From positions 12,857 through 76,856 of the forward strand of contig JBDLIH010000005.1 in the NCBI GenBank assembly GCA_039714975.1: 64,000 nt of DNA, in the 5' to 3' direction. Source of the stretch: Pseudomonadota bacterium. GTDB lineage: Bacteria > Pseudomonadota > Gammaproteobacteria > UBA9214. This document shows positions 237-58,392 of the stretch, piece after piece. Position 1 is the first letter of the stretch, and every line of letters starts with the position of its first letter. A program made the translations under genes and the position numbers. The notes beneath the pieces are model-generated. The model was not told where the DNA came from and made no database searches. It saw nothing but the letters and a program-made list of their open reading frames with translations.

Positions 237-1730
237 CTACGCTCCATCCGGGCTACAGGCCTGCTCATTCAGCCACGTGGTGAGTGTCTCAACCGGGTAG
301 ATTTGCGGCACCATCTTGCCTTCAATACCGATGAAAATTCCGACACGATCGGATCGTGAGCTGATGACGACATGGTGTTGATTAATCTGCCCGACATTCA
401 GCCACAGCGTCTCATCGATTGAGCAGGGGTGGTGGCCGACGATAAACGGAGTATCACCGCCAACTTCCAGACCCTTGCGGAACTGACGGACATCGTTACG
501 GGTATAACCGGCGGGGAAGGCCGTCGTCCTGACTCTGCTCCAGGTCATGTCATGGACAATGTCGGGGAACTGGTGTGCGTCGACCAGGCTTTGTCGTGAG
601 ACCTTTTTGCGCGGAGGACCTGCATGACAGGCAATAAAATCTTTTGAGAGCACCAGTAAGGGGGACTGCTGGTAAAAGAGTTCCAGCCCGGTTTTGTACT
701 CTTCGCCTCTTGACGACAGCACCTGTTTTTCCCAGAGCAGTCCCTGGGGGACCCCCTGCTTCATGATCTCATGCAGAAAGCTGTCGTGGTTACCAACGAT
801 ATAGAAAACCTTGTCAGGAAATTGCAGCTTCAGCCTGAAAATCAGGTCCATCATCAATAGAGAACTTTCCATGTCCCCAAGTTTTCCAGGTTCCTCAGGG
901 TGTACGGCATCCCCGAGGATGATCAGTGCAGCAGTACCTTTCTCCAGACTCTCAAGAACGGCATTCTCACTGAGTATCGTGAGCAGATTGTCCAGCTGCG
1001 CATGCAGGTCACCGACGAGTATTGGCGTGACATTGTCCGGCAACTCGAGGATGCCGCCGGGATTGCCAAGGGCATCCTTGCGATGGCCAATTTCGTTCAT
1101 GAGGAGGGTGTTGACCTGTTTCAGGGTTGCGGTTGCCTCGGGTGGAGACAGGGGCTCAAGTGGTCCTCCAAAGATTTCCAGGACCCGTTTTAAGGCGGCC
1201 CGGCGCTGAAGCACCCGGTCAGGGATTTCTTCCGGGTCGCCACTAAGCGAAATATAGGTGCCGAGTTCGGATATCGGGTCCTTGAAAATCAGGCTGTCAC
1301 CGTTGTGGGTGACAGAAAAATGGCGACGGAATGCGTCACGTGGCGAGCTGAATACATGTTCCTGGTACTTAACCTTGCTGTCTATTGCAAGCTTGCTTCC
1401 GGGGGACAGTCTTTGAAAATGAGAGACTCCGTTACTATAGCGCTCCGGGTCGAACAGAATAAAATCACAAGGCGATTCGTTGTCAGAAGCGGTGATGCCA
1501 GGGTCCGGCGACAGGATGAGAGTTTGCTTGCCCATCTCGATCCTGTATTCCTGATACCCCTTGATCGGGATGCGCAGTTCCTTGCCCGAGAGTCGAAGCT
1601 TTTGTGAAGGATCGGGAATAACGGTTTCCAGTTGAGGCTGGAAATAACCCCGAATATTTTGCCAGATCGATGGTTTCGTCATGCTGGAGTGAACCGGGTT
1701 CTCGCGATGGTTGTGTTTGTCTTCAGGCAT
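237..1730 (-). CDS. Calcineurin-like metallophosphoesterase (Ser/Thr-phosphatase-type) with FHA-like N-terminal region
   Basis: Motifs VGDLHAQLDNL, ILGDAVHPE and VGNHD. The N-terminal ~190 aa carries an FHA-like stretch (...SLIFKDPISELGTYISL). Confidence 0.75.
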   Translation of the reverse strand: MPEDKHNHRENPVHSSMTKPSIWQNIRGYFQPQLETVIPDPSQKLRLSGKELRIPIKGYQEYRIEMGKQTLILSPDPGITASDNESPCDFILFDPERYSNGVSHFQRLSPGSKLAIDSKVKYQEHVFSSPRDAFRRHFSVTHNGDSLIFKDPISELGTYISLSGDPEEIPDRVLQRRAALKRVLEIFGGPLEPLSPPEATATLKQVNTLLMNEIGHRKDALGNPGGILELPDNVTPILVGDLHAQLDNLLTILSENAVLESLEKGTAALIILGDAVHPEEPGKLGDMESSLLMMDLIFRLKLQFPDKVFYIVGNHDSFLHEIMKQGVPQGLLWEKQVLSSRGEEYKTGLELFYQQSPLLVLSKDFIACHAGPPRKKVSRQSLVDAHQFPDIVHDMTWSRVRTTAFPAGYTRNDVRQFRKGLEVGGDTPFIVGHHPCSIDETLWLNVGQINQHHVVISSRSDRVGIFIGIEGKMVPQIYPVETLTTWLNEQACSPDGA

Positions 1731-1937: not shown

Positions 1938-2348
1938 ATGGCTGTAAAGGCGGGGTATTTTCATCGACAGTCCGGGGTTATCCCTTACCGGGTGCGCAAG
2001 GGGGAGCTTGAGATCCTCCTCATTACCTCACGAAAAAAACGCCGCTGGATTATTCCCAAGGGCATCATCGAACCCGATTTCACTGCGCGCCACTCGGCCG
2101 CCAAAGAGGCGTTTGAAGAAGCCGGTGCCATGGGCGATGTGCACGACAAGCTACTTGGCCGCTATCAGCACAGGAAGCTGGGCAGGGACTGTACCGTCAA
2201 GGTATATCCGATGCGTGTTACCCGGACTTACAAGGTATGGGAAGAAGCCGATCGGGACCGCGAATGGGTGTCGCTGAAGAAAGCACTCAAACGAATCAGT
2301 AATGGCGGATTAAAGCGGGTATTGAGGAAGTTACCGCAAACGGTCTGA
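1938..2348 (+). CDS. Nudix hydrolase, DIPP/Aps1-like subgroup
   Basis: Nudix box region PKGIIEPDFTARHSAAKEAFEEAGA. Paralogous to the C-terminal half of the ORF at 20217-21176. Confidence 0.8.
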   Translation: MAVKAGYFHRQSGVIPYRVRKGELEILLITSRKKRRWIIPKGIIEPDFTARHSAAKEAFEEAGAMGDVHDKLLGRYQHRKLGRDCTVKVYPMRVTRTYKVWEEADRDREWVSLKKALKRISNGGLKRVLRKLPQTV

Positions 2349-2434: not shown

Positions 2435-3739
2435 TTATAAAATCACCCGTTCGGGCGGGAAGTGGCAGGTAAAGGTGCTGCCGCCTCCCACCGTGCTGAT
2501 GATTTCCAGTTCTGCCTCGTGACGCTCAAGTACGTGTTTGACGATGGCCAGTCCGAGGCCGGTTCCCCCGGTATCCCGCGAATGGCTGGCATCGACACGG
2601 TACAGCCGTTCAGTCAGTCGGGGGATGTGGCGGGGGGCAATGCCTTCGCCGGTATCCGTCACACTGAGGCGGGCACCCGCATGATCCACTTGCCAGCGGA
2701 CACTGACTTCCGCCTGGTTCGGGGTGTGTCTGATGGCATTGTTAACCAGATTTGAAAAAGCGGTACGGAGTTCCTTTGCGTTGCCGTGTAATCCGCCGGG
2801 TGAACGGATGTCCAGATGCAGTACATGCTGCGCTGCACCACTCAGGGTGCGTGCTTCCTCAATAATCGTTGTGAGCAGCTCCGCTATCGGAACGTGTTCG
2901 TCAGATGTGGATTTCTGTTGTATCTCCAGTCGAGACAATGTCAGCAGGTCGGACACCAGTTCACTCATGCGTCTTGCCTGTTGAACTATCAGTTCGGTTG
3001 ACCGTGACAGTATGGCCGGATCAGGTTTGTCTGTGTTCAACTGTTCAGCAAGTCCGGATATGACGGTCAGTGGGGTGCGCAGTTCATGCGACACATTGGC
3101 GACGAAGTCACGCCGTGCCGTATCGAGGTAATACTGGCGGGTAATGTCTCGCGCCACCAACATTAGCCGGTCGGCTTCATGTTTCAGCTGGGTGATAAAA
3201 ACCGAGAGGATCTTTGCCCGGTTTGCCGGAGAGGTAATGACCAGCGGCATGGCAAAATCACCGTTTGCCAGATATTCCCCGAGTACCGGGTCCGGTACAA
3301 GAGCGGTCAGTAAATCACCCTGTGAATCCGGCCATACGATATTTAGCAGGTTTCCGGCGGCGGGGTTGGACCAGTCGACCCGGCCTGACGGGTCCAGGAT
3401 GACCACGGCATCCGGTAGTGTGTTGACTGTGTCCCGAAAACGGCCAAGTTGCGAGGAGAGATCACGACTGCGAGTGTGGTTACTGAGATGCAGGCCCTGT
3501 ATTTCCCTGGCGATACCTTTCCACAGCCCCCTTGAATACGGCCCGTCTTGACCCTCATCCCCAAGCAGGTGCGGCAGACGGGCCAGTTGATACAAATGCC
3601 AGCCGAGATAAACCAGCAGACCGAGCATCAGGCAGGGCAGCAATTGTCCCGTTAGCGTACCTGCCAGGCCTGCTGCGAGCATTATCCCGAGGAACAGCCG
3701 GAGTTCTTCTTGCCAGTGGTTGGGCATGGAGAACATCAT
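2435..3739 (-). CDS. phoR: Phosphate regulon sensor histidine kinase PhoR
   Basis: Hydrophobic N-terminus, PAS-like region, H-box FVANVSHELRTPLTVI, and ATPase domain DTGEGI...GGTGLGLAIVKH. Lies directly downstream of phoB. The track start (TTG 3895) reads through the 90-bp repeat at 3771-3859. The first ATGs after it are 3739/3736/3727, so the start is uncertain. Confidence 0.85.
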   Translation of the reverse strand: MMFSMPNHWQEELRLFLGIMLAAGLAGTLTGQLLPCLMLGLLVYLGWHLYQLARLPHLLGDEGQDGPYSRGLWKGIAREIQGLHLSNHTRSRDLSSQLGRFRDTVNTLPDAVVILDPSGRVDWSNPAAGNLLNIVWPDSQGDLLTALVPDPVLGEYLANGDFAMPLVITSPANRAKILSVFITQLKHEADRLMLVARDITRQYYLDTARRDFVANVSHELRTPLTVISGLAEQLNTDKPDPAILSRSTELIVQQARRMSELVSDLLTLSRLEIQQKSTSDEHVPIAELLTTIIEEARTLSGAAQHVLHLDIRSPGGLHGNAKELRTAFSNLVNNAIRHTPNQAEVSVRWQVDHAGARLSVTDTGEGIAPRHIPRLTERLYRVDASHSRDTGGTGLGLAIVKHVLERHEAELEIISTVGGGSTFTCHFPPERVIL

Positions 3740-3770
3740 ACAAGGTAGAGTCGATCCAGAAACAATAATT

Positions 3771-3859
3771 CTCGCCAAGGCGCAAAGACGCAAAGAAAAA
3801 TATAATACACTTGCGAACTGTACGATTTTAACTTTGCGAGCTTTGCGTCTTGGCGAGAG
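3771..3859. repeat. ~90-bp intergenic element with ~22-bp terminal inverted repeats (copy 1)
   Basis: Left arm ctcgccaaggcgcaaagacgc, AT-rich centre, right arm gcgagctttgcgtcttggcgagag. Same architecture as 5431-5520. No coding capacity. Confidence 0.85.
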
Positions 3860-3891: not shown

Positions 3892-4578
3892 TCAATCGTG
3901 TGTGGAAAACCGGTAGCCGCTACCGCGAACGGTCTGAACCAGCTGATCGTGTCCTGACGGCTCCAGCGTCTTGCGCAGGCGGCGTATGTGAACATCAACG
4001 GTGCGTTCCTCGACCCAGGCGCTGGTTCCCCAGACCTGGTCGATTAATTGCTGACGGCTGTAAACTCGTTCCGGATGTGTCATGAAGAACTGCAGTAACT
4101 GAAATTCCATAGGCGCCAGTTCCAGCGAGCTATTATTGATGCTGACCCGGTGAGTCGCCGGGTCCAGCCGCAGTGTCCCGGTTTCCAGAATTTCCCCGCC
4201 GCTGTCCCGGTGGGTGCGGCGCAGCACCGCCTTGATGCGTGCCAGCAGTTCGGAGACCGAGAAGGGTTTGGCGACATAATCATCTGCGCCGGCCTCCAGC
4301 GCGGCCACCTTGTCTTCCTCTTCAGCCCGCGCCGTTAACATGATGACGGGTATTTGTTTATGGACGGAATCCCGCTGCAGTGCACGGGCAAACTCGTATC
4401 CGGATTGACCGGGGAGCATCCAGTCGAGCAGGACCAGGTCAGGTGCCTGGTTGGCAATTGTTTGCCGGGCATCCAGTGTGTTGCCGGCCTCCTGTACCTC
4501 ATAGCCGCCACTCATCAGCGCCAGCTTGATCATCTCGCGAATAGCGGGATCGTCTTCAACGACAAGGATTGTCGGCAT
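3892..4578 (-). CDS. phoB: Phosphate regulon response regulator PhoB
   Basis: Receiver domain ILVVEDDPAIREMI...DLVLLDWMLPG plus OmpR/PhoB winged helix ...VQTVRGSGYRFS. Start moved to ATG 4578 (MPTILVVEDD), 13 nt after the pstB stop. Confidence 0.9.
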   Translation of the reverse strand: MPTILVVEDDPAIREMIKLALMSGGYEVQEAGNTLDARQTIANQAPDLVLLDWMLPGQSGYEFARALQRDSVHKQIPVIMLTARAEEEDKVAALEAGADDYVAKPFSVSELLARIKAVLRRTHRDSGGEILETGTLRLDPATHRVSINNSSLELAPMEFQLLQFFMTHPERVYSRQQLIDQVWGTSAWVEERTVDVHIRRLRKTLEPSGHDQLVQTVRGSGYRFSTHD

Positions 4579-4591
4579 TGATTCTGGATTG

Positions 4592-5395
4592 CTATCCGTA
4601 GCGGCCCTCGATGTAGTCCGCCGTTTCCTGTTTCTGTGGCGTGACGAACATGTCATCGGTGGCGGTGTGTTCCACGACCTTGCCCATCAACATGAAGATG
4701 CACTCTTCACTGGCACGGCGTGCCTGGGCCATGTTGTGGGTTACGATCAGAATGGTGTACTTGCCGCGCAGTTCCCAGATCAGCTCTTCCACGGCCTCGG
4801 TGCCTTTGGGATCGAGGGCGGAGCAGGGCTCATCCATCAGCAACAGGCCGGGCTTGACGGGCAGCAGACGGGCGATACACAGCTTTTGCTGCTCCTCCAG
4901 TGATAGCTCGGTGGCCTTGCTGTCCAGCCGGTCCTTGACCTTGTCCCATAACAGGACCTGGCGCAGGGCGCTTTCGGCAATCTCGTCCTGTTCACTGCGC
5001 GGTGCACGTTTGCCTTCCGCATGCAGGTTATAGCCAAACAGTACGTTGTCACGGATGGAGATCGGCAGGGGGTTCGGGCGCTGGAAAACCATGCCGATCT
5101 GTTTTCTGACCTGCACGAGTTCCACGGCCGGATCATAGATGTTGTTTCCGAAGACGTCGATCGTGCCATCGATACGAACATAGCCCAGCCGTTCGTTGAT
5201 GCGGTTGACGCTACGCAGGAAAGTGGACTTGCCGCAACCGGAAGGTCCTATGAGGGAGGTGATGATGCCTTGTTTGATACCGAGATCGATATCGAACAGC
5301 GCCTGAAACGTCCCGTACCAGAGATTCAACTGTTCTGTCCGGATGGCATAGTCCATCGGGTTATCAATGACTGCCTGGCTATTTGTATTCATCAT
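4592..5395 (-). CDS. pstB: Phosphate ABC transporter ATP-binding protein PstB (degenerate signature motif)
   Basis: Walker A GPSGCGKST, Q-loop MVFQRPNP, Walker B LLLMDEPCSALD, H-loop VTHNM. The signature reads LSLEEQ instead of LSGGQ. The track start is TTG 5404 and the first ATG is 5395. Confidence 0.9.
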   Translation of the reverse strand: MMNTNSQAVIDNPMDYAIRTEQLNLWYGTFQALFDIDLGIKQGIITSLIGPSGCGKSTFLRSVNRINERLGYVRIDGTIDVFGNNIYDPAVELVQVRKQIGMVFQRPNPLPISIRDNVLFGYNLHAEGKRAPRSEQDEIAESALRQVLLWDKVKDRLDSKATELSLEEQQKLCIARLLPVKPGLLLMDEPCSALDPKGTEAVEELIWELRGKYTILIVTHNMAQARRASEECIFMLMGKVVEHTATDDMFVTPQKQETADYIEGRYG

Positions 5396-5430
5396 AACAT
5401 CCAAGGATTTTCATAAATGCTGCAATTTTT

Positions 5431-5520
5431 CTTGCCAAGGTGCAAAGATGCCAAAAAAGAAATATTAATATTTTTATAGCAATAGTTTATAACTTTGCGA
5501 TCTTTGCGCCTTGGCGAGAG
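5431..5520. repeat. ~90-bp intergenic element with terminal inverted repeats (copy 2)
   Basis: Left arm cttgccaaggtgcaaagatgcc, AT-rich centre, right arm gcgatctttgcgccttggcgagag. Sits between the two pstB paralogs. Confidence 0.85.
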
Positions 5521-5537
5521 TTTTTCTTTTTGTCTGG

Positions 5538-6341
5538 TCACCCGAACCGTCCCTCGACATAATCCCGGGTGCGGGGATCCTTGACCTCGCCGGTAAACAG
5601 GTCCTCGGTTTTGCCAATTTCCACACACTCGCCATTGAGGAAAAAAGCGGTACGGCTGGCGAGTCGTCGTGCCTGCTGTACCAGGTTCGTCACCAGGATG
5701 ATGGTCATTTCCTGTTTCAGTTCCTTGAGGACATCTTCAATACGCATGGTTGTCACCGGGTCGACGGCAATGGAAAACTCGTCGAGCATCAGTACTTCCG
5801 GTTCCTGGGAGAGTGCCCGGGCAATCGTCAGACGCTGCTGCTGGCCTCCGGAAAGCAGGCTGCCGAGGGAATTCAGCCGGTCCTTGACCTCGTCCCAGAG
5901 TGCGGCGCGGGTCAGGCAACGCTCGACGATGACGTCGAGGTCAGCCTTGTTTTTCAATCCCGAGAGGCGTGGGGAGAGGGCTACATTGTCATAAATGGTC
6001 ATCGGCAGACCGACCGGCAGGGGGAACACCACGCCGATACGGGAACGCAATGCGTAGACATTTCTCAGACGACGGATATCAAGACCGTTGAACTGGATTT
6101 CACCTTCGACATGCATGTTGGAATCGAACATGTCCATGCGATTCAGTGTCTTTAGGAACGAGGTTTTACCGGCGTTGGCCGGGCCGATGATGCCGAAGAT
6201 TTCGTGTTCGCGTATGGCCAGGCTGACATTACTGAGTGCCGGTGTATTGCCATAGCGAATGGACAGGTCGCGCACTTCCAGCTTGACGGGTACCTGTTCT
6301 GTTACCGTTTCGTGTACGGCTGTCTGTGTACTGGCTACCAT
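5538..6341 (-). CDS. PstB-like ABC ATPase paralog with degenerate Q-loop and H-loop
   Basis: Walker A GPANAGKTS, intact signature LSGGQQQRL, Walker B VLMLDEFSIAVD. The Q-loop Gln is replaced (VVFPLP) and the H-loop His is replaced (VTNLVQQ). Confidence 0.85.
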   Translation of the reverse strand: MVASTQTAVHETVTEQVPVKLEVRDLSIRYGNTPALSNVSLAIREHEIFGIIGPANAGKTSFLKTLNRMDMFDSNMHVEGEIQFNGLDIRRLRNVYALRSRIGVVFPLPVGLPMTIYDNVALSPRLSGLKNKADLDVIVERCLTRAALWDEVKDRLNSLGSLLSGGQQQRLTIARALSQEPEVLMLDEFSIAVDPVTTMRIEDVLKELKQEMTIILVTNLVQQARRLASRTAFFLNGECVEIGKTEDLFTGEVKDPRTRDYVEGRFG

Positions 6342-7204
6342 TTCTTTTTACCCCGCAACCAGGTACGGAAGGCGATGGAGAGGCTGTTCATCAACAACAC
6401 CATGGCGATGAGCACCAGGGCAACACCATAAGGCAGGTTCTCGGGTACACCGGGCACCTGCGTCGATACCACGAACAGGTGCAGGGACATGGCCATGGTC
6501 TGGTCAAAGATACCCTGCGGCAGGAACGGGGTGAAGAATACCGCGCCGGTAAACATGATGGGAGCGGTCTCGCCGGAGGTGCGCGACACCTCGAGAATGA
6601 CACCGGTGAGGATGCCGGAGACGGCATTGGGCAGTACCACGCGGCGGATCGTCTGCCAGCGGGTGGCGCCCATGTTCCAGCAGGCCTCGCGAAATGCATG
6701 CGGGACTGCCTGCAGGGACTCGCGGGTTGCAACAATCACCACTGGCAGGGTCATGATGGCCAGCGTCAGACTGGCTGCGAGAATGCTGGTGCCAAAGCCG
6801 AAAAACAGCACAAAGGCGCCGACGCCAAACAGGGCATGCACGATCGACGGGACACCGGCCAGGTTGATGATGGCCAGGTTGATGATGCGGGTAAACCAGT
6901 TCTCGCCGGCGTATTCACTGAGATAGATGGCGGCTGCAATTCCCAGCGGTACGGAAATGAGTAACGCCACCGCGACCAGCCACATGGTACCCAGCAGGGC
7001 AGGGAAGATGCCGCCTGCGGTCATGCCGTCGGTCGGGGCGGTGAACAGGAAATCGATGGAGATGACCGAGCCGCCCTTTACAATCAAGGTTCCGAGGATG
7101 AGCAGTACTGGTAGAATCAGCAGCACAGTCATCAGCAGGAACAGGATATTGAAGAGTCGCTGGACCCGCTGGTTCCTGATGTTGAGTGCAGATGTCTCAA
7201 ACAT
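6335..7204 (-). CDS. pstA: Phosphate ABC transporter permease PstA
   Basis: Polytopic permease with ...ESLQAVPHAFREACWNMGATRWQTIRRVVLP. ATG 7204 lies just after the pstC stop (7209-7211). The track start is TTG 7234. Confidence 0.9.
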   Translation of the reverse strand: MFETSALNIRNQRVQRLFNILFLLMTVLLILPVLLILGTLIVKGGSVISIDFLFTAPTDGMTAGGIFPALLGTMWLVAVALLISVPLGIAAAIYLSEYAGENWFTRIINLAIINLAGVPSIVHALFGVGAFVLFFGFGTSILAASLTLAIMTLPVVIVATRESLQAVPHAFREACWNMGATRWQTIRRVVLPNAVSGILTGVILEVSRTSGETAPIMFTGAVFFTPFLPQGIFDQTMAMSLHLFVVSTQVPGVPENLPYGVALVLIAMVLLMNSLSIAFRTWLRGKKKW

Positions 7205-7208
7205 GGTC

Positions 7209-8141
7209 TTAGCCTTTGCGTACGCCGCGTACAATCAGATCGGCGGTGAGGTTAATAATGAAGGTGATCAGGAACAGGAAGATGCCGATGGTGAACAGTA
7301 CCTGGTAGTGATCGGAACCCACGGCAGTCTCACCCAGTTCGGCGGCAATCGTGGCCGTCAGGGCGCGCACCGAGTCGAAGATGCTGCCCGGGATGTTGAT
7401 CGAGTGACCTGTCGCCATCAGCACAGCCATGGTTTCACCGAAACCCCGGCCGACACCGAGCAGTACCGCACCCAGCAGGCCGTTTTTTGCAGCCGGCAAT
7501 ACCGTTTTGTAGATGACCTGCCAGCGGGTGGCGCCCATAGCTTCAGCCGCTTCACGGTAGCGGTCAGGCACTGCCTTGAGTGCATCCTCGGCGATGGAGG
7601 TCATGATAGGTGCGGCCATCAATCCGAGGATGATGCCGGCGTTCAGTACGTTCAGTCCCACCGGGACATCAAAGAGTTCAATAATCAGCGGGTTCATGAT
7701 GCTGAGACCTATGAAGCCCCAGACTACCGAGGGGATGGCGGCCAGCAGTTCCACCAGTATCTTGAGGATTTCCCGGGTCTTGCCGGTGGCAAACTCGGCA
7801 ATGTAGACCGCCGCACCCAGTGAAAACGGAATGGCCACCAGCATTGCCAGTCCGGTGACACTGGCCGTGCCCGCGATCAGTGCCAGGATGCCATATTCCG
7901 GATCTTCCTCCTCGGCAGGGTACCAGTAGGGTGAGGTGAAGAATTCCTGGAAATCAAAACGGTCGAGAATAAAACCGAAGCCTTCCTTGGTGACAAAGGC
8001 AAAGATACCAACGACGAAGATGATGGCCGAGATGCCGCCGATGAAGACCAGCAGCTGGACCAGCTTGTCGATATACCAGTCGGCGTTGCGGCGATCGAAG
8101 TCAGCCGCATGGCGACTGCTTGTCGAGGGTTGAGTGGTCAT
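7209..8141 (-). CDS. pstC: Phosphate ABC transporter permease PstC
   Basis: ...AEDALKAVPDRYREAAEAMGATRWQVIYKTVLPAAKNG. ATG 8141 lies 1 nt after the upstream stop (8143-8145). The track start is GTG 8159. Confidence 0.9.
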   Translation of the reverse strand: MTTQPSTSSRHAADFDRRNADWYIDKLVQLLVFIGGISAIIFVVGIFAFVTKEGFGFILDRFDFQEFFTSPYWYPAEEEDPEYGILALIAGTASVTGLAMLVAIPFSLGAAVYIAEFATGKTREILKILVELLAAIPSVVWGFIGLSIMNPLIIELFDVPVGLNVLNAGIILGLMAAPIMTSIAEDALKAVPDRYREAAEAMGATRWQVIYKTVLPAAKNGLLGAVLLGVGRGFGETMAVLMATGHSINIPGSIFDSVRALTATIAAELGETAVGSDHYQVLFTIGIFLFLITFIINLTADLIVRGVRKG

Positions 8142-8142
8142 G

Positions 8143-9228
8143 CTAGGTGGCGCCTTCACCGCGCAGGGCTTCCATCAGGTCACGGACCTGGACAGCCGTA
8201 TCGCGGTAAATCTCTTCCAGCCGGCTGATGCCAGCTTCATCGCTATTTTCCGGGGCGGGGCCGACATCCCACTCCAGGGGAGTTGTGTGGAAGGGGACCT
8301 GGTCGAAGTAGGATTTGACCGGGCCCTGCAGGCTGACGATGACATGTTGCGCGGTCAGTTCCAGTGCGGTCATGTCAAGCGGTCCGGGTTTGGCAGTGTC
8401 AGCAAGGCTTACGCCATGGCTGTCAAGAAATTCCACCATGGCCGGATTCAGTTCGTTGGCAGGCTGTCGCCCGGCGCTGGTGTAGTTGCCGCTTTCGGGA
8501 AAATGCTTGCGGGCAATGGCCTCGGCGATCTGGCTTTGACAACTGTTGTCCTCGTCAATAAACAGGATGTTGTATACCTTGGGTGCCTTGGTGTCCCCGG
8601 TAGAGGCGAATACCGCTTCTTCGCAGAGGTTCTTGGCCTGGTCTGCGACCCGTTTCAACTGGTTGAAAACGGCGAACATTGCCAGCAGGTTCTTGACTGC
8701 GTCCCGGTCGTCATTGGCCATCAATTCGGAATAAATGATATCCAGATCATTCTCCATCTGCTCTTCCAGGATCATGGTGGCTTTTGCCATCTCGGGGTTA
8801 AGCTCGTTAAAGGCCTTGATGGACTGGCCCAGCATGAGTTGCGTCTCGTTGCCGACACGTTCGAGTTCACTGGACATCGGCCCTGACGGAGGTGACGACA
8901 GCTGTATTGCCTCGCGGGCGATGGTGGCTGCGTAATCGCCGATCCGCTCCAGTTCGATGTTTGCCCGGATCACGGAAGACAGCAGCCGCAGATGGCCGGC
9001 ACTCGGCAGATGCAAGGCAATGAATTTATGACACAACTGATCGATCCGCCGCATGGCGCGGTTGATCGGGTGGTCTGCAATTACGGTAGCGGATGCGAGT
9101 TTGCCGTTGCCGGTTTGCAGTGCATGCATGGCATTCCTGACCGCTGTTTCCACCAGCCCGGCCATGTCTGCTACCTGCTCGCGGATAACGATCAGGTCTT
9201 TTTCCAGACGTTCTTCATAGTGACTCAT
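8143..9228 (-). CDS. PhoU-domain protein fused to a catalytically degenerate LMW-PTP/ArsC-like domain
   Basis: The N-terminal ~220 aa is a PhoU duplication (...ANIELERIGDYAATIAREA..., ...VFNQLKRVADQAKNLCEEAV). The C-terminal ~130 aa aligns to the LMW-PTP/ArsC fold (NILFIDEDNSCQSQIAEA...YTSAG...NP). Its P-loop is D-x5-Q instead of C-x5-R. Confidence 0.8.
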   Translation of the reverse strand: MSHYEERLEKDLIVIREQVADMAGLVETAVRNAMHALQTGNGKLASATVIADHPINRAMRRIDQLCHKFIALHLPSAGHLRLLSSVIRANIELERIGDYAATIAREAIQLSSPPSGPMSSELERVGNETQLMLGQSIKAFNELNPEMAKATMILEEQMENDLDIIYSELMANDDRDAVKNLLAMFAVFNQLKRVADQAKNLCEEAVFASTGDTKAPKVYNILFIDEDNSCQSQIAEAIARKHFPESGNYTSAGRQPANELNPAMVEFLDSHGVSLADTAKPGPLDMTALELTAQHVIVSLQGPVKSYFDQVPFHTTPLEWDVGPAPENSDEAGISRLEEIYRDTAVQVRDLMEALRGEGAT

Positions 9229-9302: not shown

Positions 9303-10175
9303 TCAATCGCACTTCACGGCGTGTATCGGGGCATAGCCTTTCTTCACCAATATGCATTGACCGGCATCGCTATGAATCCAGTCCATGTAGCTCTTGATCG
9401 CACCCCGGGGTTCGCCGTTGGTATACATGAACAATGGACGGGCAATCGGGTAGCTGCGGTCACTGGCTGTTGCCACGCTCGGGCTTACACAGGCATCCGC
9501 ACCGTCTGTGGCGATGCAGACCGACTTGAGGTGGTCCGTTGCGTAAGCCAGACCACTGTAGCCGATGGCGCAGGGTGTCTTCTCGACCAGGTCAACGACA
9601 TCCTTGGAGCCATGCATGTCCAGAGTGCCCTGGCGATACTTGCCTTTCTTGCCCAGCACGGTCTCTTTGAAATAGGCGTAAGTGCCGGAATTGTTCTGCC
9701 GGCTGACGACCACAATTTCATCCTTGCAGCCGGGTACGGTGATACCCATGTCCGACCACTTTTTGACCTTGGGGTCACGGCCATAGATATCCTTCAACTG
9801 TGCCAGCGACATGGACTTGACCGGGTTATTCTTGTGAATAAATACGGCCAGCGCATCGAAACCGACAACATGTTCGACCGGTGACTGGCCATTTTTCTTG
9901 GCCAGGTCCATTTCCTTGCCCTTCATTTTGCGGCTGGCGTTGGCGATATCCACGGTGCCGTTGATCATGGCGGCAATGCCGGTACCGGAACCACCGCCGG
10001 AAACCGCAACAGCAACATCGGGGTTAACCGTGGGATAGGCTTCTGCCCAGGCCTGGGCCACATTAACGAGAGTGTCGGAACCCTTGTTCTGAATCAGGGT
10101 GCGTGCCTGCGGGGCCATTGCGGTGAGCAGGGCAGACATCAGCAGCGTGGTGGAAAAAACAAGTTTCAGCTTCAT
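9303..10175 (-). CDS. pstS: Phosphate-binding protein PstS
   Basis: Signal peptide, then GSDTLVNVAQAWAEAY...VSGGGSGTGIAAMINGTVDIANASR. Start set to ATG 10175, 9 nt after AGGAG. The track start at 10184 abuts the SD. Confidence 0.85.
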   Translation of the reverse strand: MKLKLVFSTTLLMSALLTAMAPQARTLIQNKGSDTLVNVAQAWAEAYPTVNPDVAVAVSGGGSGTGIAAMINGTVDIANASRKMKGKEMDLAKKNGQSPVEHVVGFDALAVFIHKNNPVKSMSLAQLKDIYGRDPKVKKWSDMGITVPGCKDEIVVVSRQNNSGTYAYFKETVLGKKGKYRQGTLDMHGSKDVVDLVEKTPCAIGYSGLAYATDHLKSVCIATDGADACVSPSVATASDRSYPIARPLFMYTNGEPRGAIKSYMDWIHSDAGQCILVKKGYAPIHAVKCD

Positions 10176-10241
10176 GGGTAACATCTCCTGTTTAGATTAA
10201 TATTAGAAAAATATTAAATCTGTGTTAGCAATGAGCAGCTG

Positions 10242-10926: not shown

Positions 10927-11679
10927 CTATTCCCAGCAAGATATGCGTTGCTTGACATCCTCCCACAGGGCTTCGTAGCAATGGGCCGTGCGACCATTGG
11001 GTGCGAAGTCACCCAGCGGGGTGCGACAGGTCCCCATGCGTTCCACTTGACTGTCGTAGGGTATGGCCGTTTGCAGGAGATTTTTCATGTAGTCCGGCGG
11101 GGTGTCCACGATAGAACTGTGCATTTTTTTGCGGCGATCGACCATGGAGAAGAATGGCAGGATCTTGACGGTATCAAGATCGTGCTGCCGGAAAAACTTT
11201 TGTATCTGCTTGTAGGTACGCAATGACAGGGTGGTGGGTATGGTGGGCACCAGCACGGTGTCGGTTGCCTCGAAGATGTTTTCCGATACCAGGGAAATGC
11301 TCGGCGGACAGTCAAGAAAGACATAGTAATATTCGCTCTTGAAGGGTTTGAGCAGTTTGCGCAACTGGCTTATCGGGTTTTTCGTATGTTCCAGATAGAG
11401 GTCCATCTTGCGGTAGGAAAAATCCGCCGGCAACAGGTCGAGCAGTTCATAATCAGTGCCGCGGATAAAATCTTCCAGGTCACGTTTGCCCTGGACCAGG
11501 CGTTTGCCGCCGCCCTTGATCTTCGGTTTGATACGGAAGTAATAGCTCGCGGCACCCTGGGGATCAAGGTCCCAGACAAGTGTGGGTGCACCCTCGCGGG
11601 CAGCAAGCCAGGCAAGATTGACGGCAGTGGCGGTTTTCCCAACGCCCCCCTTGATATTGTATGTGGCGATTACTTTCAA
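10927..11679 (-). CDS. Orphan ParA/MinD-family ATPase
   Basis: Deviant Walker A KGGVGKTATAVNLA and DLDPQG. Start moved to TTG 11679 (M)KVIATYNIKGG, 10 nt after GGAG and 14 nt below the CHAD gene stop. No parB-like gene is adjacent. Confidence 0.85.
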   Translation of the reverse strand: MKVIATYNIKGGVGKTATAVNLAWLAAREGAPTLVWDLDPQGAASYYFRIKPKIKGGGKRLVQGKRDLEDFIRGTDYELLDLLPADFSYRKMDLYLEHTKNPISQLRKLLKPFKSEYYYVFLDCPPSISLVSENIFEATDTVLVPTIPTTLSLRTYKQIQKFFRQHDLDTVKILPFFSMVDRRKKMHSSIVDTPPDYMKNLLQTAIPYDSQVERMGTCRTPLGDFAPNGRTAHCYEALWEDVKQRISCWE

Positions 11680-11695
11680 GCTTGCGTTTCTCCGG

Positions 11696-13249
11696 CTAAT
11701 GGCTGGATGAGAAAAGTTTTCGGAATCGGTCCTGGTTGTCCTGGCGTGAGAAGCCGGCGTAGCGGCCGGAAAATTCCTCACGTGCCTGGCGCTGGCGCCG
11801 TTCCAGACCATCGATCAGCATACCCATGGCGAGCAGCGTGTCAGGAGGGACTGCGCCTTCGGCAACCATCTGGTGGCTGAATGTTTTCAGGGTGGTGACC
11901 TGTACCTCATAATCCTGAAAGTTACCCAGGTTGTCCTGCAATGTCTTGAGTGTGCGGATTAATTCCTTGATATTGCCGGCCGGGTACAGGCTCAGGAAGA
12001 ACTCCATGAGATAACGCAGTTTCTTGCAGGTCTTGCGCAGTTCATGGAGATCATCCGCGGGCGATTCAGGGGTGATGGCATCGCCTTCCCGGATGACGCG
12101 CCGGAAGATACGCCAGATACGCTCGCTGGCTACCTCAACGACGGGCCGGCCTGCATTTTTCAGCGTCGAGCGTTCGTTGACCGATTCCTCAAGAAAACTG
12201 CGCCAGTTCCTGATCAGACGGCTGTAGCGTGCCGAATTCAGTGCCTTGACCAGGCTTTTGTTTTCAGCTTTCTGGTGTTTGATGAGGAACGTACGCAGTG
12301 GCTCGATATCGGTCTGCACGGCGGCAGGGAGGCTGTTACGGTATTCGTCAAAGTTCAGTAAATAGACATCCAGGTCACGGCTGGGACTGGTTATTTGCCC
12401 GAGCCAGGCAAATTCGGCTTTATATCGGTCAACAATGCGTTTCGGGAACACTGCCTTGATCTGGGAAAGGGCGGAACGGGTACGGCGAATAGCGACCCGA
12501 AAATCATGCAGGAACTCGGTGTCCGTACCGGTGCGTGTGCCGGCCTCGTTTTGCAGCATGATATCAAGTAGCCGATGCAAGATGAGCTTGCTTGCCTCAT
12601 CTGCCCGCATGGCGGGATCCAGTTCCAGGTTCAGTTTGGACGAGTAGTTACCCGGTGTTTCACCGATAGTGGACAGGACCGCCAGCAAGAGATCATCCTC
12701 TGCCGGGCTCAAACCCTGCTGCTGCAGAATTTTTGCTACTGCCTTGCCGGGTTTCGGGAAACCCCTGACCGGAATGATGACTGCCCGATTATCAAGTTTT
12801 CCGGAACGGACTCCTTTCTGTCGAGGCAGGGTGTTTTCCTCGACCACCAGCCAGGCCACCGTTTTTTCGTCCTTGTTCAGGATGCGCAGGGTGTTGGTCC
12901 TGGTGCGAATTCTGAATTTCGGGACCAGTTCGCGCATTTCAAGCACCGGTTCAAGCTGCTTGCGGAGCGGTCCTTGTGGCAGGTCCCAGGCAAATCGGGG
13001 CGCTTTATTCAGCTTCAGGCGGGGACAGCGTTGTTCACCTTTCAGGGTTCGCCATACCAGTGTGTGGCTGTTGCCGTCACGGGTGTCTTCAAGTAGTGAA
13101 TCATCCAGATACAGACGCCAGTCAAAACTGTCATAGTACGTCCGGTAGATCGTCCGTGACGGTTCTGTGAGTAATCGTGTGTTTTCCTGAAGAGTTGACT
13201 GCAAGTCTTCGAAGCACAGGTTCTCGGGAATAATATAATCTATACGCAT
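11696..13249 (-). CDS. CYTH-like (degenerate) / CHAD domain protein
   Basis: CHAD helices EFLHDFRVAIRRTRSAL and DDLHELRKTCKKLRYLMEFF. The N-terminal ~200 aa is CYTH-like (YYDSFDWRL) but lacks ExExK. Start moved to ATG 13249 (MRIDYII...); the longer ORF would overlap the divergent gene. Confidence 0.8.
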   Translation of the reverse strand: MRIDYIIPENLCFEDLQSTLQENTRLLTEPSRTIYRTYYDSFDWRLYLDDSLLEDTRDGNSHTLVWRTLKGEQRCPRLKLNKAPRFAWDLPQGPLRKQLEPVLEMRELVPKFRIRTRTNTLRILNKDEKTVAWLVVEENTLPRQKGVRSGKLDNRAVIIPVRGFPKPGKAVAKILQQQGLSPAEDDLLLAVLSTIGETPGNYSSKLNLELDPAMRADEASKLILHRLLDIMLQNEAGTRTGTDTEFLHDFRVAIRRTRSALSQIKAVFPKRIVDRYKAEFAWLGQITSPSRDLDVYLLNFDEYRNSLPAAVQTDIEPLRTFLIKHQKAENKSLVKALNSARYSRLIRNWRSFLEESVNERSTLKNAGRPVVEVASERIWRIFRRVIREGDAITPESPADDLHELRKTCKKLRYLMEFFLSLYPAGNIKELIRTLKTLQDNLGNFQDYEVQVTTLKTFSHQMVAEGAVPPDTLLAMGMLIDGLERRQRQAREEFSGRYAGFSRQDNQDRFRKLFSSSH

Positions 13250-13337
13250 TTGCTGTCGTGCCCGGATTGCTTTCCGGTAATGAATATATCTGCCCCACGC
13301 TGATAATCCGGTAACCGTATTTTTTATACAGCCCATT

Positions 13338-13372
13338 CTGTCACTAAAACTGCCATTCATGCAATGATAAGT
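13338..13372 (+). promoter_or_regulatory. Pho-box-like direct repeat plus -10-like hexamer upstream of the CNNM gene
   Basis: CTGTCAC-TAAAA-CTGCCAT, then 10 nt, then ATAAGT. The half-site period is 12 bp rather than the canonical 11 bp. Confidence 0.3.
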
Positions 13373-13412
13373 GTATGTTTTGGCAGATCTGGCTGGATTC
13401 TGGTATGAATAT

Positions 13413-14672
13413 ATGATGGAAATTGTTGCTCTGCTGGTGTTGCTGGTTTTTTCCGGAATTTTCTCCGGCTCGGAGACGGCCCTGGTTGCGCTGTCCATGG
13501 CGCGGGTGGGAGCCCTTGTCACGGAAGAGAGAGCGGGTGCGAAGGCGCTCTACCAGCTCAAGAAAGACCCTTCGCGGATGCTGACGACCATCCTGATCGG
13601 TAACAATCTGGTCAATATTGCAGCCTCGGCACTGGCGACGGTTGTTGCAACGCGGGAGTTTGGCAGTGCCGGGCCGGGTATTGCCGTTGGTGTGCTGACC
13701 CTGTTTATTCTGGTGTTTGGTGAAATTACACCCAAGAGCCTGGCGACGCGTTTTTCCGAGCGCATTTCACTGTTTATCGCCTTTCCGTTACTGACATTCA
13801 TGCGCCTGATTTATCCCCTGGTGTGGTTCTTTGGCAATTTCACCAACTGGGTACACCGCCTGACAGGCGGCAAGGGGGATCCAACGGTGACCGAACTGGA
13901 ACTGATCGGGATGCTGGGATACGGTGTTGAGGAAGGCGCCATCGAGCATAATGAGCAGAAAATTATCGAGCGGGTATTTGCCTTCAATGACCTGAAGGTT
14001 CGGGATGTCATGACGCCCAAGGGTAAAATGTTTACCCTGGACAGTGCGCTTTCAGTAGCCGCAGCCATCCCGGTAGTATCGCAGGAGCGCTATTCGCGGA
14101 TTCCCCTGTTTGAAGGACAAAACGATAACATAACGAAGGTGCTATACCTGCGGGACCTGCTCAGGGCTTCTGCCAGCGGGCAGATGGAAGAATCACTGGG
14201 CAGTATTGCCCATGAGCCGCTGTTCGTGTCGCAGTATCAGGCGATCGATGACCTGTTTGCCACCTTGAGACAGCGTAACCGGCTTTTCTCTATCGTGGTG
14301 GATGAATACGGAGATGTACGGGGAATTGTGACGCTCGAAGACCTGCTGGAGGAACTGGTCGGTGAAATCTACGATGAAAGCGATGTTGCGCCACTTGATG
14401 TCGACAGTCTTTCCATGAATGAAATCAGTGTGCCGGGATCTGCTGAACTGCGTGTGGTAGAGGAATTCTTCAATCTGGAACTGCCGGGAAAACCAACCGA
14501 TACGGTCAGTCTGTGGATCTTGAGCCACACGGAATATATTCCCCGCGAGAGTGAAACATTCACAATCGACAATCTGGAAGTCAGGATTGTCAGGGCATCG
14601 GACCGCAGTATCGACCAGGTCAATATACGTTACCCTGCCGGTGTTCCGGACAGTGTTGAAGATGATCAATAA
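13413..14672 (+). CDS. CNNM/CorC-HlyC family transporter (DUF21 + CBS pair + CorC_HlyC)
   Basis: FSGIFSGSETALVAL (DUF21), a CBS pair, and a C-terminal transporter-associated domain. The track start is GTG 13371 and the first ATG pair is at 13413/13416. Confidence 0.85.
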   Translation: MMEIVALLVLLVFSGIFSGSETALVALSMARVGALVTEERAGAKALYQLKKDPSRMLTTILIGNNLVNIAASALATVVATREFGSAGPGIAVGVLTLFILVFGEITPKSLATRFSERISLFIAFPLLTFMRLIYPLVWFFGNFTNWVHRLTGGKGDPTVTELELIGMLGYGVEEGAIEHNEQKIIERVFAFNDLKVRDVMTPKGKMFTLDSALSVAAAIPVVSQERYSRIPLFEGQNDNITKVLYLRDLLRASASGQMEESLGSIAHEPLFVSQYQAIDDLFATLRQRNRLFSIVVDEYGDVRGIVTLEDLLEELVGEIYDESDVAPLDVDSLSMNEISVPGSAELRVVEEFFNLELPGKPTDTVSLWILSHTEYIPRESETFTIDNLEVRIVRASDRSIDQVNIRYPAGVPDSVEDDQ

Positions 14673-57159: not shown

Positions 57160-58392
57160 ATGAAAACGTCTATGATGAAACACAACTGGTTACGCCTCCT
57201 TTGCATCCTCGTGTGTCTCTCGTTCACCGCGGGCATGAGCGCCGGCGCCTTTGCGGCCCCTCCGGATCGAGACGGCGATGGTTACGATAAGCGATCCGAC
57301 TGCGACGACAATAATGCCGCCGTCAATCCGGGCGCAACAGAAGGCCCGTTTGGTGACGCGACCTGTTCCGATACCTGGGACAACGACTGCAATGGATTGA
57401 CCGATGGAGACGATCCGCAATGTCAGGGCGGTGTCACATGCACCGACAACGACCTGGATGGTTACGGCAGTCCGGGCGATCCCTCCTGTCCGAACGGCGG
57501 AGCCACGGACTGCGACGACAATAATGCTGCCGTCAACCCGGACGCGACGGAAGGCCCGTTTGGTGACCCAACCTGTACAGATACCTGGGACAACAACTGT
57601 AACGGATTGACCGACGTTGATGACCTGAGTTGCCAGCTTGTCGACGAGGTCTGCAATGATGGCTTCGACAACGACGGTGATGGCAATATTGACTGCGCCG
57701 ATTCGGACTGTGCCGGCGAATCTGCCTGCACCGCGGGCAATAAGCTGACGGTCAACCGAGTTACCGGCACCGTGCTGGGCATCGGGCCGGATGACGGTCT
57801 GTGGAACGCCACCGCAGCGACCAGCTACAACCTGGCCTGGCGCGACGATATCAATGATACCTGTCCGCCGGAGCAAAGCTGCAGTGGTAACCAGCCGAGC
57901 TTGACGGTCAAGGCCATCCACAACGGCACCGACATCGCCTTCCTGATGTCCTGGACCGATGTCGACCAGAGCAGCGAGGTCTATCAGCCGTCGGAATTCG
58001 GCGACCGCGCCGTGATCATGCTCAACGCCAACCGCATTTGCCAGATGGGCAGTCCGACCAATCCGACCAATATGTGGTTCTGGAATGCGGCGGACAAGAC
58101 CCAGGAGACCGAGGGATCATATGGCAGCGTGCAGAACCTGCTCGGGGGTGGGATCGGCACTATCACCCATACCGATGGCGACGACAACATCCAGGCAGTC
58201 AGCAGCTACGCGGGAGGCATGTGGCAGGTGGTAATGAGTCGTCCGCTGGCCGCGATTGATCCGCTTGATCAGTTCGAGTTTACTCTTGGTGTGACCACCG
58301 ATGTGTCCTATGCCGTGTATGATGGAGCGTTCAAGCAGCGCAACGGGTCCAAGTGGATCAGCGGCCGGGAAGCGATAAACATCGCACCTTGA
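57160..58392 (+). CDS. Molybdoenzyme gamma subunit (EbdC/DdhC/SerC-like heme-b domain) with N-terminal Cys/Asp-rich repeat extension
   Basis: Sec signal ...GMSAGAFAAPP. Residues ~35-200 hold three DxDxDG...CDDNNAAVNPxATEGPFGDxTCxDTWDNxCNGLTD-type repeats. The C-terminal ~210 aa is EB_dh-like (LTVKAIHNGTDIAFLMSWTD, FGDRAVIMLN, MWFWNA, GMWQVVMSRPL). Confidence 0.75.
   Translation: MKTSMMKHNWLRLLCILVCLSFTAGMSAGAFAAPPDRDGDGYDKRSDCDDNNAAVNPGATEGPFGDATCSDTWDNDCNGLTDGDDPQCQGGVTCTDNDLDGYGSPGDPSCPNGGATDCDDNNAAVNPDATEGPFGDPTCTDTWDNNCNGLTDVDDLSCQLVDEVCNDGFDNDGDGNIDCADSDCAGESACTAGNKLTVNRVTGTVLGIGPDDGLWNATAATSYNLAWRDDINDTCPPEQSCSGNQPSLTVKAIHNGTDIAFLMSWTDVDQSSEVYQPSEFGDRAVIMLNANRICQMGSPTNPTNMWFWNAADKTQETEGSYGSVQNLLGGGIGTITHTDGDDNIQAVSSYAGGMWQVVMSRPLAAIDPLDQFEFTLGVTTDVSYAVYDGAFKQRNGSKWISGREAINIAP
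57298..57414 (+). repeat. Intragenic direct repeat, copy 1 (~117 bp)
   Basis: gactgcgacgacaataatgccgccgtcaatccg...acctgggacaacgactgcaatggattgaccgat.... By eye it is highly similar to 57508-57624, offset by 210 bp (70 codons). Confidence 0.85.
57508..57624 (+). repeat. Intragenic direct repeat, copy 2 (~117 bp)
   Basis: gactgcgacgacaataatgctgccgtcaacccg...acctgggacaacaactgtaacggattgaccgac.... Confidence 0.85.

Follow-up and report, generated by a model that had tools for sequence, protein, structure and literature searches.

The closest described systems and the pst-pho gene string

In the PstSCAB phosphate importer of E. coli (PDB 9k3x/9k3y/9k3s; PMC12976172), two identical PstB subunits, one docked on PstA and one on PstC, form two consensus ATP sites; ATP is held by Walker A/B of one PstB and the LSGGQ of the other, and E179 is catalytic (PMC12976172). 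A comparison of this system with the locus described here reveals the same core of pstS, pstC, pstA and pstB, whereas in the latter two diverged pstB genes are predicted to provide a consensus site and a non-canonical one, the phoU gene, placed between pstS and pstC, carries a fused domain that resembles a phosphatase but is dead, and phoBR is present in the same gene string.

Two adjacent pstB genes after pstA are likewise found in Firmicutes as PstB1/PstB2 (PstBA/PstBB), and the B. subtilis importer has been modelled as a PstBA-PstBB heterodimer. Both PstB1 and PstB2 of E. faecalis are canonical in their motifs (PMC12096839), as are both copies of the Bacillales tandem pairs (L024, L041, L046 and L052). 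The Firmicute copies group with canonical PstBs and contain no degenerate site, whereas the pair described here is degenerate, which rules out a Firmicute-type PstB1/PstB2 identity.

Degenerate sites have been described as frequent in ABC exporters (PMC3971661, PMC7756269), and loss of the catalytic Glu of Walker B is usual in the classical ones (PMC7544095, PMC7756269). In TM287/288, TAP1/TAP2, CFTR, MRP1 and Pdr5, the same reciprocity is observed as here, in that substitutions on the catalytic face of one nucleotide-binding domain (NBD), including the H-loop His, and a non-LSGGQ signature of the other affect one and the same composite site; the degenerate signature of Pdr5, LNVEQ, resembles the LSLEE of the distal PstB (PMC7756269). 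However, these proteins are exporters with NBDs fused to membrane domains, usually without the Walker B Glu, whereas the present system is an importer of type I that depends on a binding protein and has free NBDs, in which the Glu is kept and the Q-loop Gln is lost. The CUT2-type sugar and nucleoside importers RbsA and NupO are also ABC importers with one ATP site that is degenerate by sequence (PMC11466899), but they carry two NBDs in one polypeptide, belong to another importer class and family, and have lost the Walker A Lys. The sequence-only reading of this DNA had known of no such reciprocal pattern in Pst importers, and full-text searches on PstB and on degenerate ABC importers generally returned no published description of one.

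The window, which is the whole 64-kb stretch of DNA that was analysed, contains on its minus strand pstS, phoU-fusion, pstC, pstA, proximal pstB, hairpin, distal pstB, phoB, hairpin and phoR, in this order:

9303..10184, minus strand: pstS, periplasmic phosphate-binding protein (TIGR02136, 239.5 bits, above cut-off; PBP_like_2)
8143..9228, minus strand: phoU with a C-terminal LMWPTP/ArsC-like domain (PhoU, 136 bits; LMWPc, 29.7 bits)
7209..8159, minus strand: pstC permease (TIGR02138, 279 bits)
6335..7234, minus strand: pstA permease (TIGR00974, 261 bits)
5538..6341, minus strand: proximal pstB paralogue (267 aa; TIGR00972 best family match)
5430..5519, minus strand: palindromic repeat of ~90 nt, a long hairpin between the pstB genes (repeat comparison and folding)
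4592..5395, minus strand: distal pstB paralogue (267 aa; TIGR00972 best family match)
3892..4578, minus strand: phoB response regulator (from sequence; the L084 orthologue has Response_reg and Trans_reg_C)
3770..3858, minus strand: the palindromic repeat again, in the phoB-phoR interval (repeat comparison and folding)
2435..3739, minus strand: phoR histidine kinase (probable start ATG 3739; the L084 orthologue has PhoR/HisKA/HATPase_c)

The start codon of proximal pstB overlaps the stop codon of pstA, the two pstB genes are separated by a spacer of 142 nt with the hairpin inside, and 13 nt (4579-4591) lie between the stop codon of distal pstB and the start of phoB. In this pstS-containing operon, the two pstB genes follow directly on pstC-pstA, an order repeated in 19 other genomes, and no third pstB is present in the 64-kb window. 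The flanking genes are phosphate-related and encode a CHAD-domain protein, a calcineurin-like phosphoesterase and a CNNM/CorC-type protein. On exact-sequence look-up, no record was found for a window protein.

Motifs, conservation and spacer of the two pstB genes

The best match of both paralogues is TIGR00972 (PstB), which is covered over its full length (2-248 of 248) with scores of 281.5 bits (proximal) and 316.6 bits (distal), both below the cut-off of 343.2 for membership. The two proteins share 36% identity with each other, and both align over their full length with E. coli PstB at 44-46% identity. The PstB of the solved structures 9k3x/9k3s was used as the motif reference, and residues are given in E. 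coli numbering unless stated otherwise. The proximal PstB aligns to this reference without gaps; the motif positions are therefore unambiguous, and a misalignment of the motifs is ruled out.

In the proximal PstB, Walker A reads GPANAGKTS (S45A, G46N and T51S), the Q-loop VVFPLPVG (Q98P, N101V and P102G), Walker B with the D-loop LDEFSIAVD (P180F at Walker B+1 and S182I in the D-loop), and the H-loop VTNL (H210N and N211L), so that the degenerate face comprises A55, N56, P107, F189, I191, N219 and L220 in the protein's own numbering. The signature LSGGQQQR is intact (a perfect LSGGQQQRL), and K49, D178, E179 and the A-loop residue Tyr20 are kept, the first three being K59, D187 and E188 in the protein's own numbering. 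The distal PstB has a canonical Walker A (GPSGCGKST), Q-loop (MVFQRPNP), Walker B (MDEPCSALD) and H-loop (VTHN), and its signature, LSLEEQQK, contains LSLEE with G156L, G157E and R161K (L166, E167 and K171 in its own numbering). Neither polypeptide carries the full canonical set, since the proximal one is without the Q-loop Gln and H-loop His and the distal one without the signature GG. The sequence-only reading had described exactly this situation, namely a distal protein with consensus Walker A/B, VFQ and VTHN beside an LSLEEQ signature, and a proximal protein that keeps LSGGQQQR and has lost the Gln and His. The alignments confirm these residues, and comparison with a broad set of 66 canonical PstBs places the substitutions at the catalytic positions.

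A scan with one genome per species yielded 19 complete loci with a proximal orthologue (56-84% identity), and in 19 of 19 a distal orthologue (58-81% identity) lies immediately downstream, which bears out the co-occurrence of the two motif types. The carriers span at least seven phyla (Gammaproteobacteria, Planctomycetota, Acidobacteriota, Myxococcota, Poribacteria, Verrucomicrobiota and Binatia). They include Gammaproteobacteria and Chromatiaceae MAGs and, in addition, one carrier labelled Accumulibacter; Holophagales, Thermoanaerobaculia and Ca. Multivorans from the Acidobacteriota; and Polyangiaceae, Ca. Poribacteria, Limisphaera (Verrucomicrobiota), Ca. Binatia and Rhodothermia (a truncated contig). 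At least one carrier, Limisphaera sp. 4302-co, is apparently a named isolate and not a MAG.

P98, N210, F180 and I182 are invariant in 22 proximal-type sequences, and all of the 19 distal-type sequences have L156 and E157. In the 66 canonical PstBs from the same scan, Q98, H210, G156 and G157 are 100% conserved, so the motif substitutions, being invariant in the pair, are far beyond chance. The changes of the proximal paralogue at otherwise conserved positions are located on its own nucleotide-binding face (counted as Walker A, Q-loop, Walker B+1, D-loop and H-loop) or at a few scattered sites, and the conserved changes of the distal paralogue concentrate in the signature motif. The Walker A Lys, Walker B Asp, catalytic Glu and A-loop Tyr are invariant in the proximal-type sequences; loss of the Walker B Glu, a frequent hallmark of degenerate sites, is not observed in these proteins, with E179 kept in 22 of 22. 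The 120 closest database relatives of the proximal PstB (85-94% identity) show the same motifs wherever these are covered.

Both pstB genes exhibit dN/dS values of 0.05-0.10 in comparison with three relatives, as do pstA and pstC, and are thus under strong purifying selection; together with the invariant motifs, these values rule out a pseudogene or decay. In neighbour-joining trees (60 bootstrap replicates), the proximal clade and the distal clade are each recovered in 60/60. The asymmetry, found in at least seven phyla, is evolutionarily conserved and is not a product of decay. An origin of the two paralogues as sisters from one recent duplication is unsupported, as they are monophyletic together in 0/60 bootstraps, where long-branch effects are possible.

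Among the 50%-identity representatives, a second group of PstBs has A or S in place of Q98 and an H-loop that reads VTNN. Where the neighbouring PstB is readable, it has canonical catalytic motifs and a signature of LSAEQ (L081) or LPLEQ (L089), and in L211 an LSAEQ-type protein is preceded by a gene that ends with a VTNN H-loop. These two kinds of PstB form sister groups of the proximal and distal clades (51/60 and 52/60 bootstraps). The reciprocity is older and broader than the clade of the window, since the sister subclade repeats it, and its maintenance with different residues speaks for selection that acts on the state of the site, not on individual side chains.

The 90-bp repeat noted between the pstB genes in the sequence-only reading is real and corresponds to the hairpin at 5430-5519, an imperfect palindrome of ~90 nt (dG -31.5 kcal/mol, z -5.0); the copy at 3770-3858 is 77% identical, in the same orientation (dG -44, z -7.8). 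The repeat is absent from the orthologous pstB spacers of L001-L005 and from the closest relative, L084 (94% identity, with the same operon and flanks), in which the pstB genes overlap by 4 nt; this ATGA overlap is found in five loci, L084 included. A role as a conserved regulatory part of the pair is ruled out by these absences, and the spacers of the relatives, together with the overlapping genes of L084, identify the hairpin as a lineage-specific insertion that broke an ancestral translational coupling. The 23-nt arm pattern recurs across more than 120 metagenome contigs, frequently with several copies on one contig, and a recognisable opposite (3') arm is present in 59 of 137 matches; by our own estimate, which assumes a collection of ~1e12 bases, ~1-2 matches are expected by chance for 20 specified bases. 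As an imperfect palindrome that forms a long hairpin and occurs between genes in many copies, the element belongs to a dispersed, REP/MITE-like repeat family. No Rfam family was matched, and nothing in the window reaches a gathering score; the one sub-threshold hit, a plant miRNA precursor (34.5 vs 72 bits), is an artefact of the long hairpin. The insertion may affect the ratio of proximal to distal expression.

Proposed asymmetric heterodimer and its alternatives

In light of the motifs, the two PstBs are likely to form an obligate heterodimer with one consensus and one non-canonical ATP site. The system would be a variant PstSCAB phosphate importer, in which two different nucleotide-binding subunits work on PstC-PstA only as a heterodimer. 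Two features of heterodimeric ABC ATPases are observed: the two non-identical NBDs (36% identity) are encoded together, adjacent in 19 of 19 loci, and the clade-specific substitutions of the catalytic face and of the signature converge on a single composite site, which upholds the reciprocal degeneracy proposed from the sequence alone. Site 1, the predicted catalytic site, would be composed of the Walker A, Walker B, Q-loop and H-loop of the distal PstB and the LSGGQ of the proximal PstB. The earlier claim that this site is fully consensus stands for the distal face and the proximal LSGGQ, which are intact, but not for the proximal D-loop that contacts it (SALD to IAVD), and the site is for this reason not strictly canonical. 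Site 2 would combine the altered Walker A, Q-loop Pro and H-loop Asn of the proximal PstB with the distal LSLEE, which agrees with the earlier claim of a site degenerate on both faces (Q98P, H210N and the Walker A changes opposite LSLEE). Because the defects of the two ATPases complement each other, one normal and one crippled site are expected for the heterodimer, and in a homodimer of either paralogue both sites would be defective.

Binding of ATP-Mg at site 2 is probable in view of the invariant Walker A Lys and Ser/Thr, Walker B Asp and Glu and A-loop Tyr, and hydrolysis at this site is probably slow or nil. Some residual hydrolysis is possible, as the proximal Walker B catalytic Glu is retained, and H210N by itself is no proof of inactivity, since replacement of the H-loop His by Asn in NBD2 of MRP1 was tolerated and the mutant retained transport. 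One ATP would be consumed per cycle, with the second nucleotide serving as structural or regulatory glue in the manner of TM287/288, TAP1/2, CFTR and Pdr5. It is quite probable that the pair works like the asymmetric NBD dimers of the TM287/288, TAP or Pdr5 type, here in a type I importer.

The same invariant residues of the proximal paralogue, together with the tolerated Asn of MRP1, might also be expected if both sites of the heterodimer were competent and the substitutions retuned the kinetics or the coupling to the membrane subunits; since the Q-loop touches the coupling helix as well, PLPVG might be a docking adaptation. This explanation is unlikely, however, because the Q-loop Gln, the H-loop His and both signature Gly of one and the same site are replaced and frozen across phyla, the Glu that replaces the second signature Gly brings a negative charge into the immediate vicinity of the gamma-phosphate, and the sister subclade has changed at the same positions with different residues.

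The use of homodimers is disfavoured by the complementarity itself. A distal homodimer with LSLEE could power transport while the proximal PstB serves as a regulatory pseudo-ATPase outside transport, for example as a partner of PhoU or PhoR, an idea to which the co-occurrence of a special PhoU fusion with the pair lends some weight, as does the binding of E. coli PhoU to PstB and PhoR. Such a homodimer would nevertheless have two sites with a defective signature, whereas the invariant proximal LSGGQQQRL is purposeful only opposite a working Walker A/B site, and the overlap of the proximal start codon with the pstA stop codon is typical of a subunit of the complex; we consider this arrangement quite improbable. 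Least probable, and hardly to be expected, is a pair of homodimeric transporters that serve as alternatives with distinct roles, as suggested for pstB1/pstB2 of Enterococcus faecalis, adjacent genes with non-overlapping functions (PMC12096839), since here each homodimer would contain two defective sites and the defects are complementary. The obligate heterodimer is the reading preferred here.

The PhoU fusion and significance for Pst transport and signalling

In the LMWPTP/ArsC-like domain fused to PhoU, the CX5R P-loop reads DEDNSCQS, with loss of the nucleophilic Cys and the Arg. The catalytic Cys is replaced in all 15 aligned PhoU-fusion sequences, by Asp in 14 and by Ser in one. Of 20 degenerate-pair loci, 14 have the fusion and six lack it, two of the latter being truncated contigs; among canonical loci it occurs in 0 of 60 (Fisher p = 2.6e-11), in 43 of which an ordinary PhoU is visible. 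No paper on a PhoU/LMWPTP-like fusion was found in a literature search. This specific association with the degenerate-pair loci points to a single variant Pst module that comprises both the asymmetric ATPase pair and the special PhoU and may have a signalling function. That the degenerate site is a dedicated signalling site, which together with the PhoU pseudo-phosphatase fusion would form an asymmetric sensor reporting to PhoR, is a speculative extension of this reading, and it is equally doubtful that such a sensor would signal the occupancy of the transporter, or phosphate or ATP in the cytoplasm.

Both pstB genes are annotated merely as "phosphate ABC transporter ATP-binding protein", and these generic names, together with scores below the PstB equivalog cut-off, render the subfamily invisible in current annotation. 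The number of ATP molecules used per cycle by binding-protein-dependent ABC importers is an old unsettled question, as is the purpose of the second site, and most work on it to date has used homodimers engineered to be half-dead, such as those of HisP. A natural Pst importer with a non-canonical site that has been selected across many phyla would provide a direct test system. The variant is also relevant to phosphate sensing, in that Pho-regulon signalling is believed to sense the conformation of PstB by way of PhoU, and this variant comes with its own unusual PhoU. If the sensor reading is true, the locus would represent a version of the Pst-PhoU-PhoR relay in which the transport site and the sensing site are naturally separated.

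PhoU fusion accompanying the degenerate PstB pair

In the operon carrying the degenerate PstB pair (a proximal PstB that has lost the Q-loop Gln and H-loop His, and a distal PstB with the signature LSLEE), the following gene is found:

8143-9228, minus strand: phoU fused to a C-terminal LMWPTP/ArsC-like domain

This C-terminal domain, in which Asp or Ser occupies the position of the nucleophilic Cys, is a predicted pseudo-phosphatase. Orthologues of the fusion are present in the comparison loci L001-L004, L006, L008-L010, L013, L015-L017, L019, L028, and L084-L087. The fusion occurs in 14 of the 20 loci with the degenerate pair, whereas none of the 60 canonical loci (those with ordinary PstB motifs) contains it (p = 2.6e-11). 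Operons with the degenerate pair are its sole setting among the 20 + 60 loci compared. A literature search found no paper on a PhoU-LMWPTP/ArsC-like fusion.

Palindromic repeat and surroundings of the operon

Two copies of a palindromic hairpin repeat of approximately 90 nt lie within the pst operon:

5430-5519, minus strand: first copy
3770-3858, minus strand: other copy

The arms are composed of repeated CGC(A/C)AAG-like units. Metagenomes of many samples contain the arm pattern on more than 120 contigs (L091-L210), some of which carry it in tandem arrays (L104, L107, L119, and L135). No Rfam family matched the repeat, which may be a REP- or MITE-like element. Elsewhere in the window, a 129-nt direct repeat is present in two copies (57298-57426 and 57508-57636) with 83% identity and a spacing of 210 nt.

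The surroundings of the operon are phosphate-related (10927-13522, minus strand; 13371-14672, plus strand; 237-1730, minus strand; and 1938-2348, plus strand), and its neighbours encode a CHAD-domain protein, a ParA/CbiA-like ATPase, a CNNM/CorC-type protein, and a calcineurin-like phosphoesterase. In L084, a relative with 94% identity, a PPK2 polyphosphate kinase gene follows phoR. Two ORFs also lie here:

1938-2348, plus strand: ORF of 136 aa
10362-10712, minus strand: small ORF of 116 aa flanked by pstS and the ParA-like gene

The C-terminal tail of the 116-aa product is extremely Lys-rich (KKDKKEKKKKNKGKGKDKDKKKGKGKKKGKK).

Other degenerate or atypical PstB proteins

A second subclade of reciprocally degenerate PstB pairs, sister to that of the window, is found at loci L081, L089, and L211 (proteins P0150, P0211, P0132, P0171 and P0160, P0197). 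In one partner, the Q-loop Gln is replaced by Ala or Ser and the H-loop reads VTNN, while the signature of the other is LSAEQ, LPLEQ, or LTEEQ. PhoU at these loci is ordinary or missing, and the fusion is absent. Further atypical PstB copies are present at the following loci:

L054, 7422-8249 (Nostoc sp.): extra paralogue, Q-loop Gln replaced by Pro, His kept
L075, 4407-5171 (Clostridium sp.): extra paralogue without the Walker A Lys, Q-loop Gln, and Walker B Glu
L014, 8480-9280 (Ca. Poribacteria): third, divergent PstB copy adjoining an ordinary PhoU

The asymmetry of PstB may have more than one origin.
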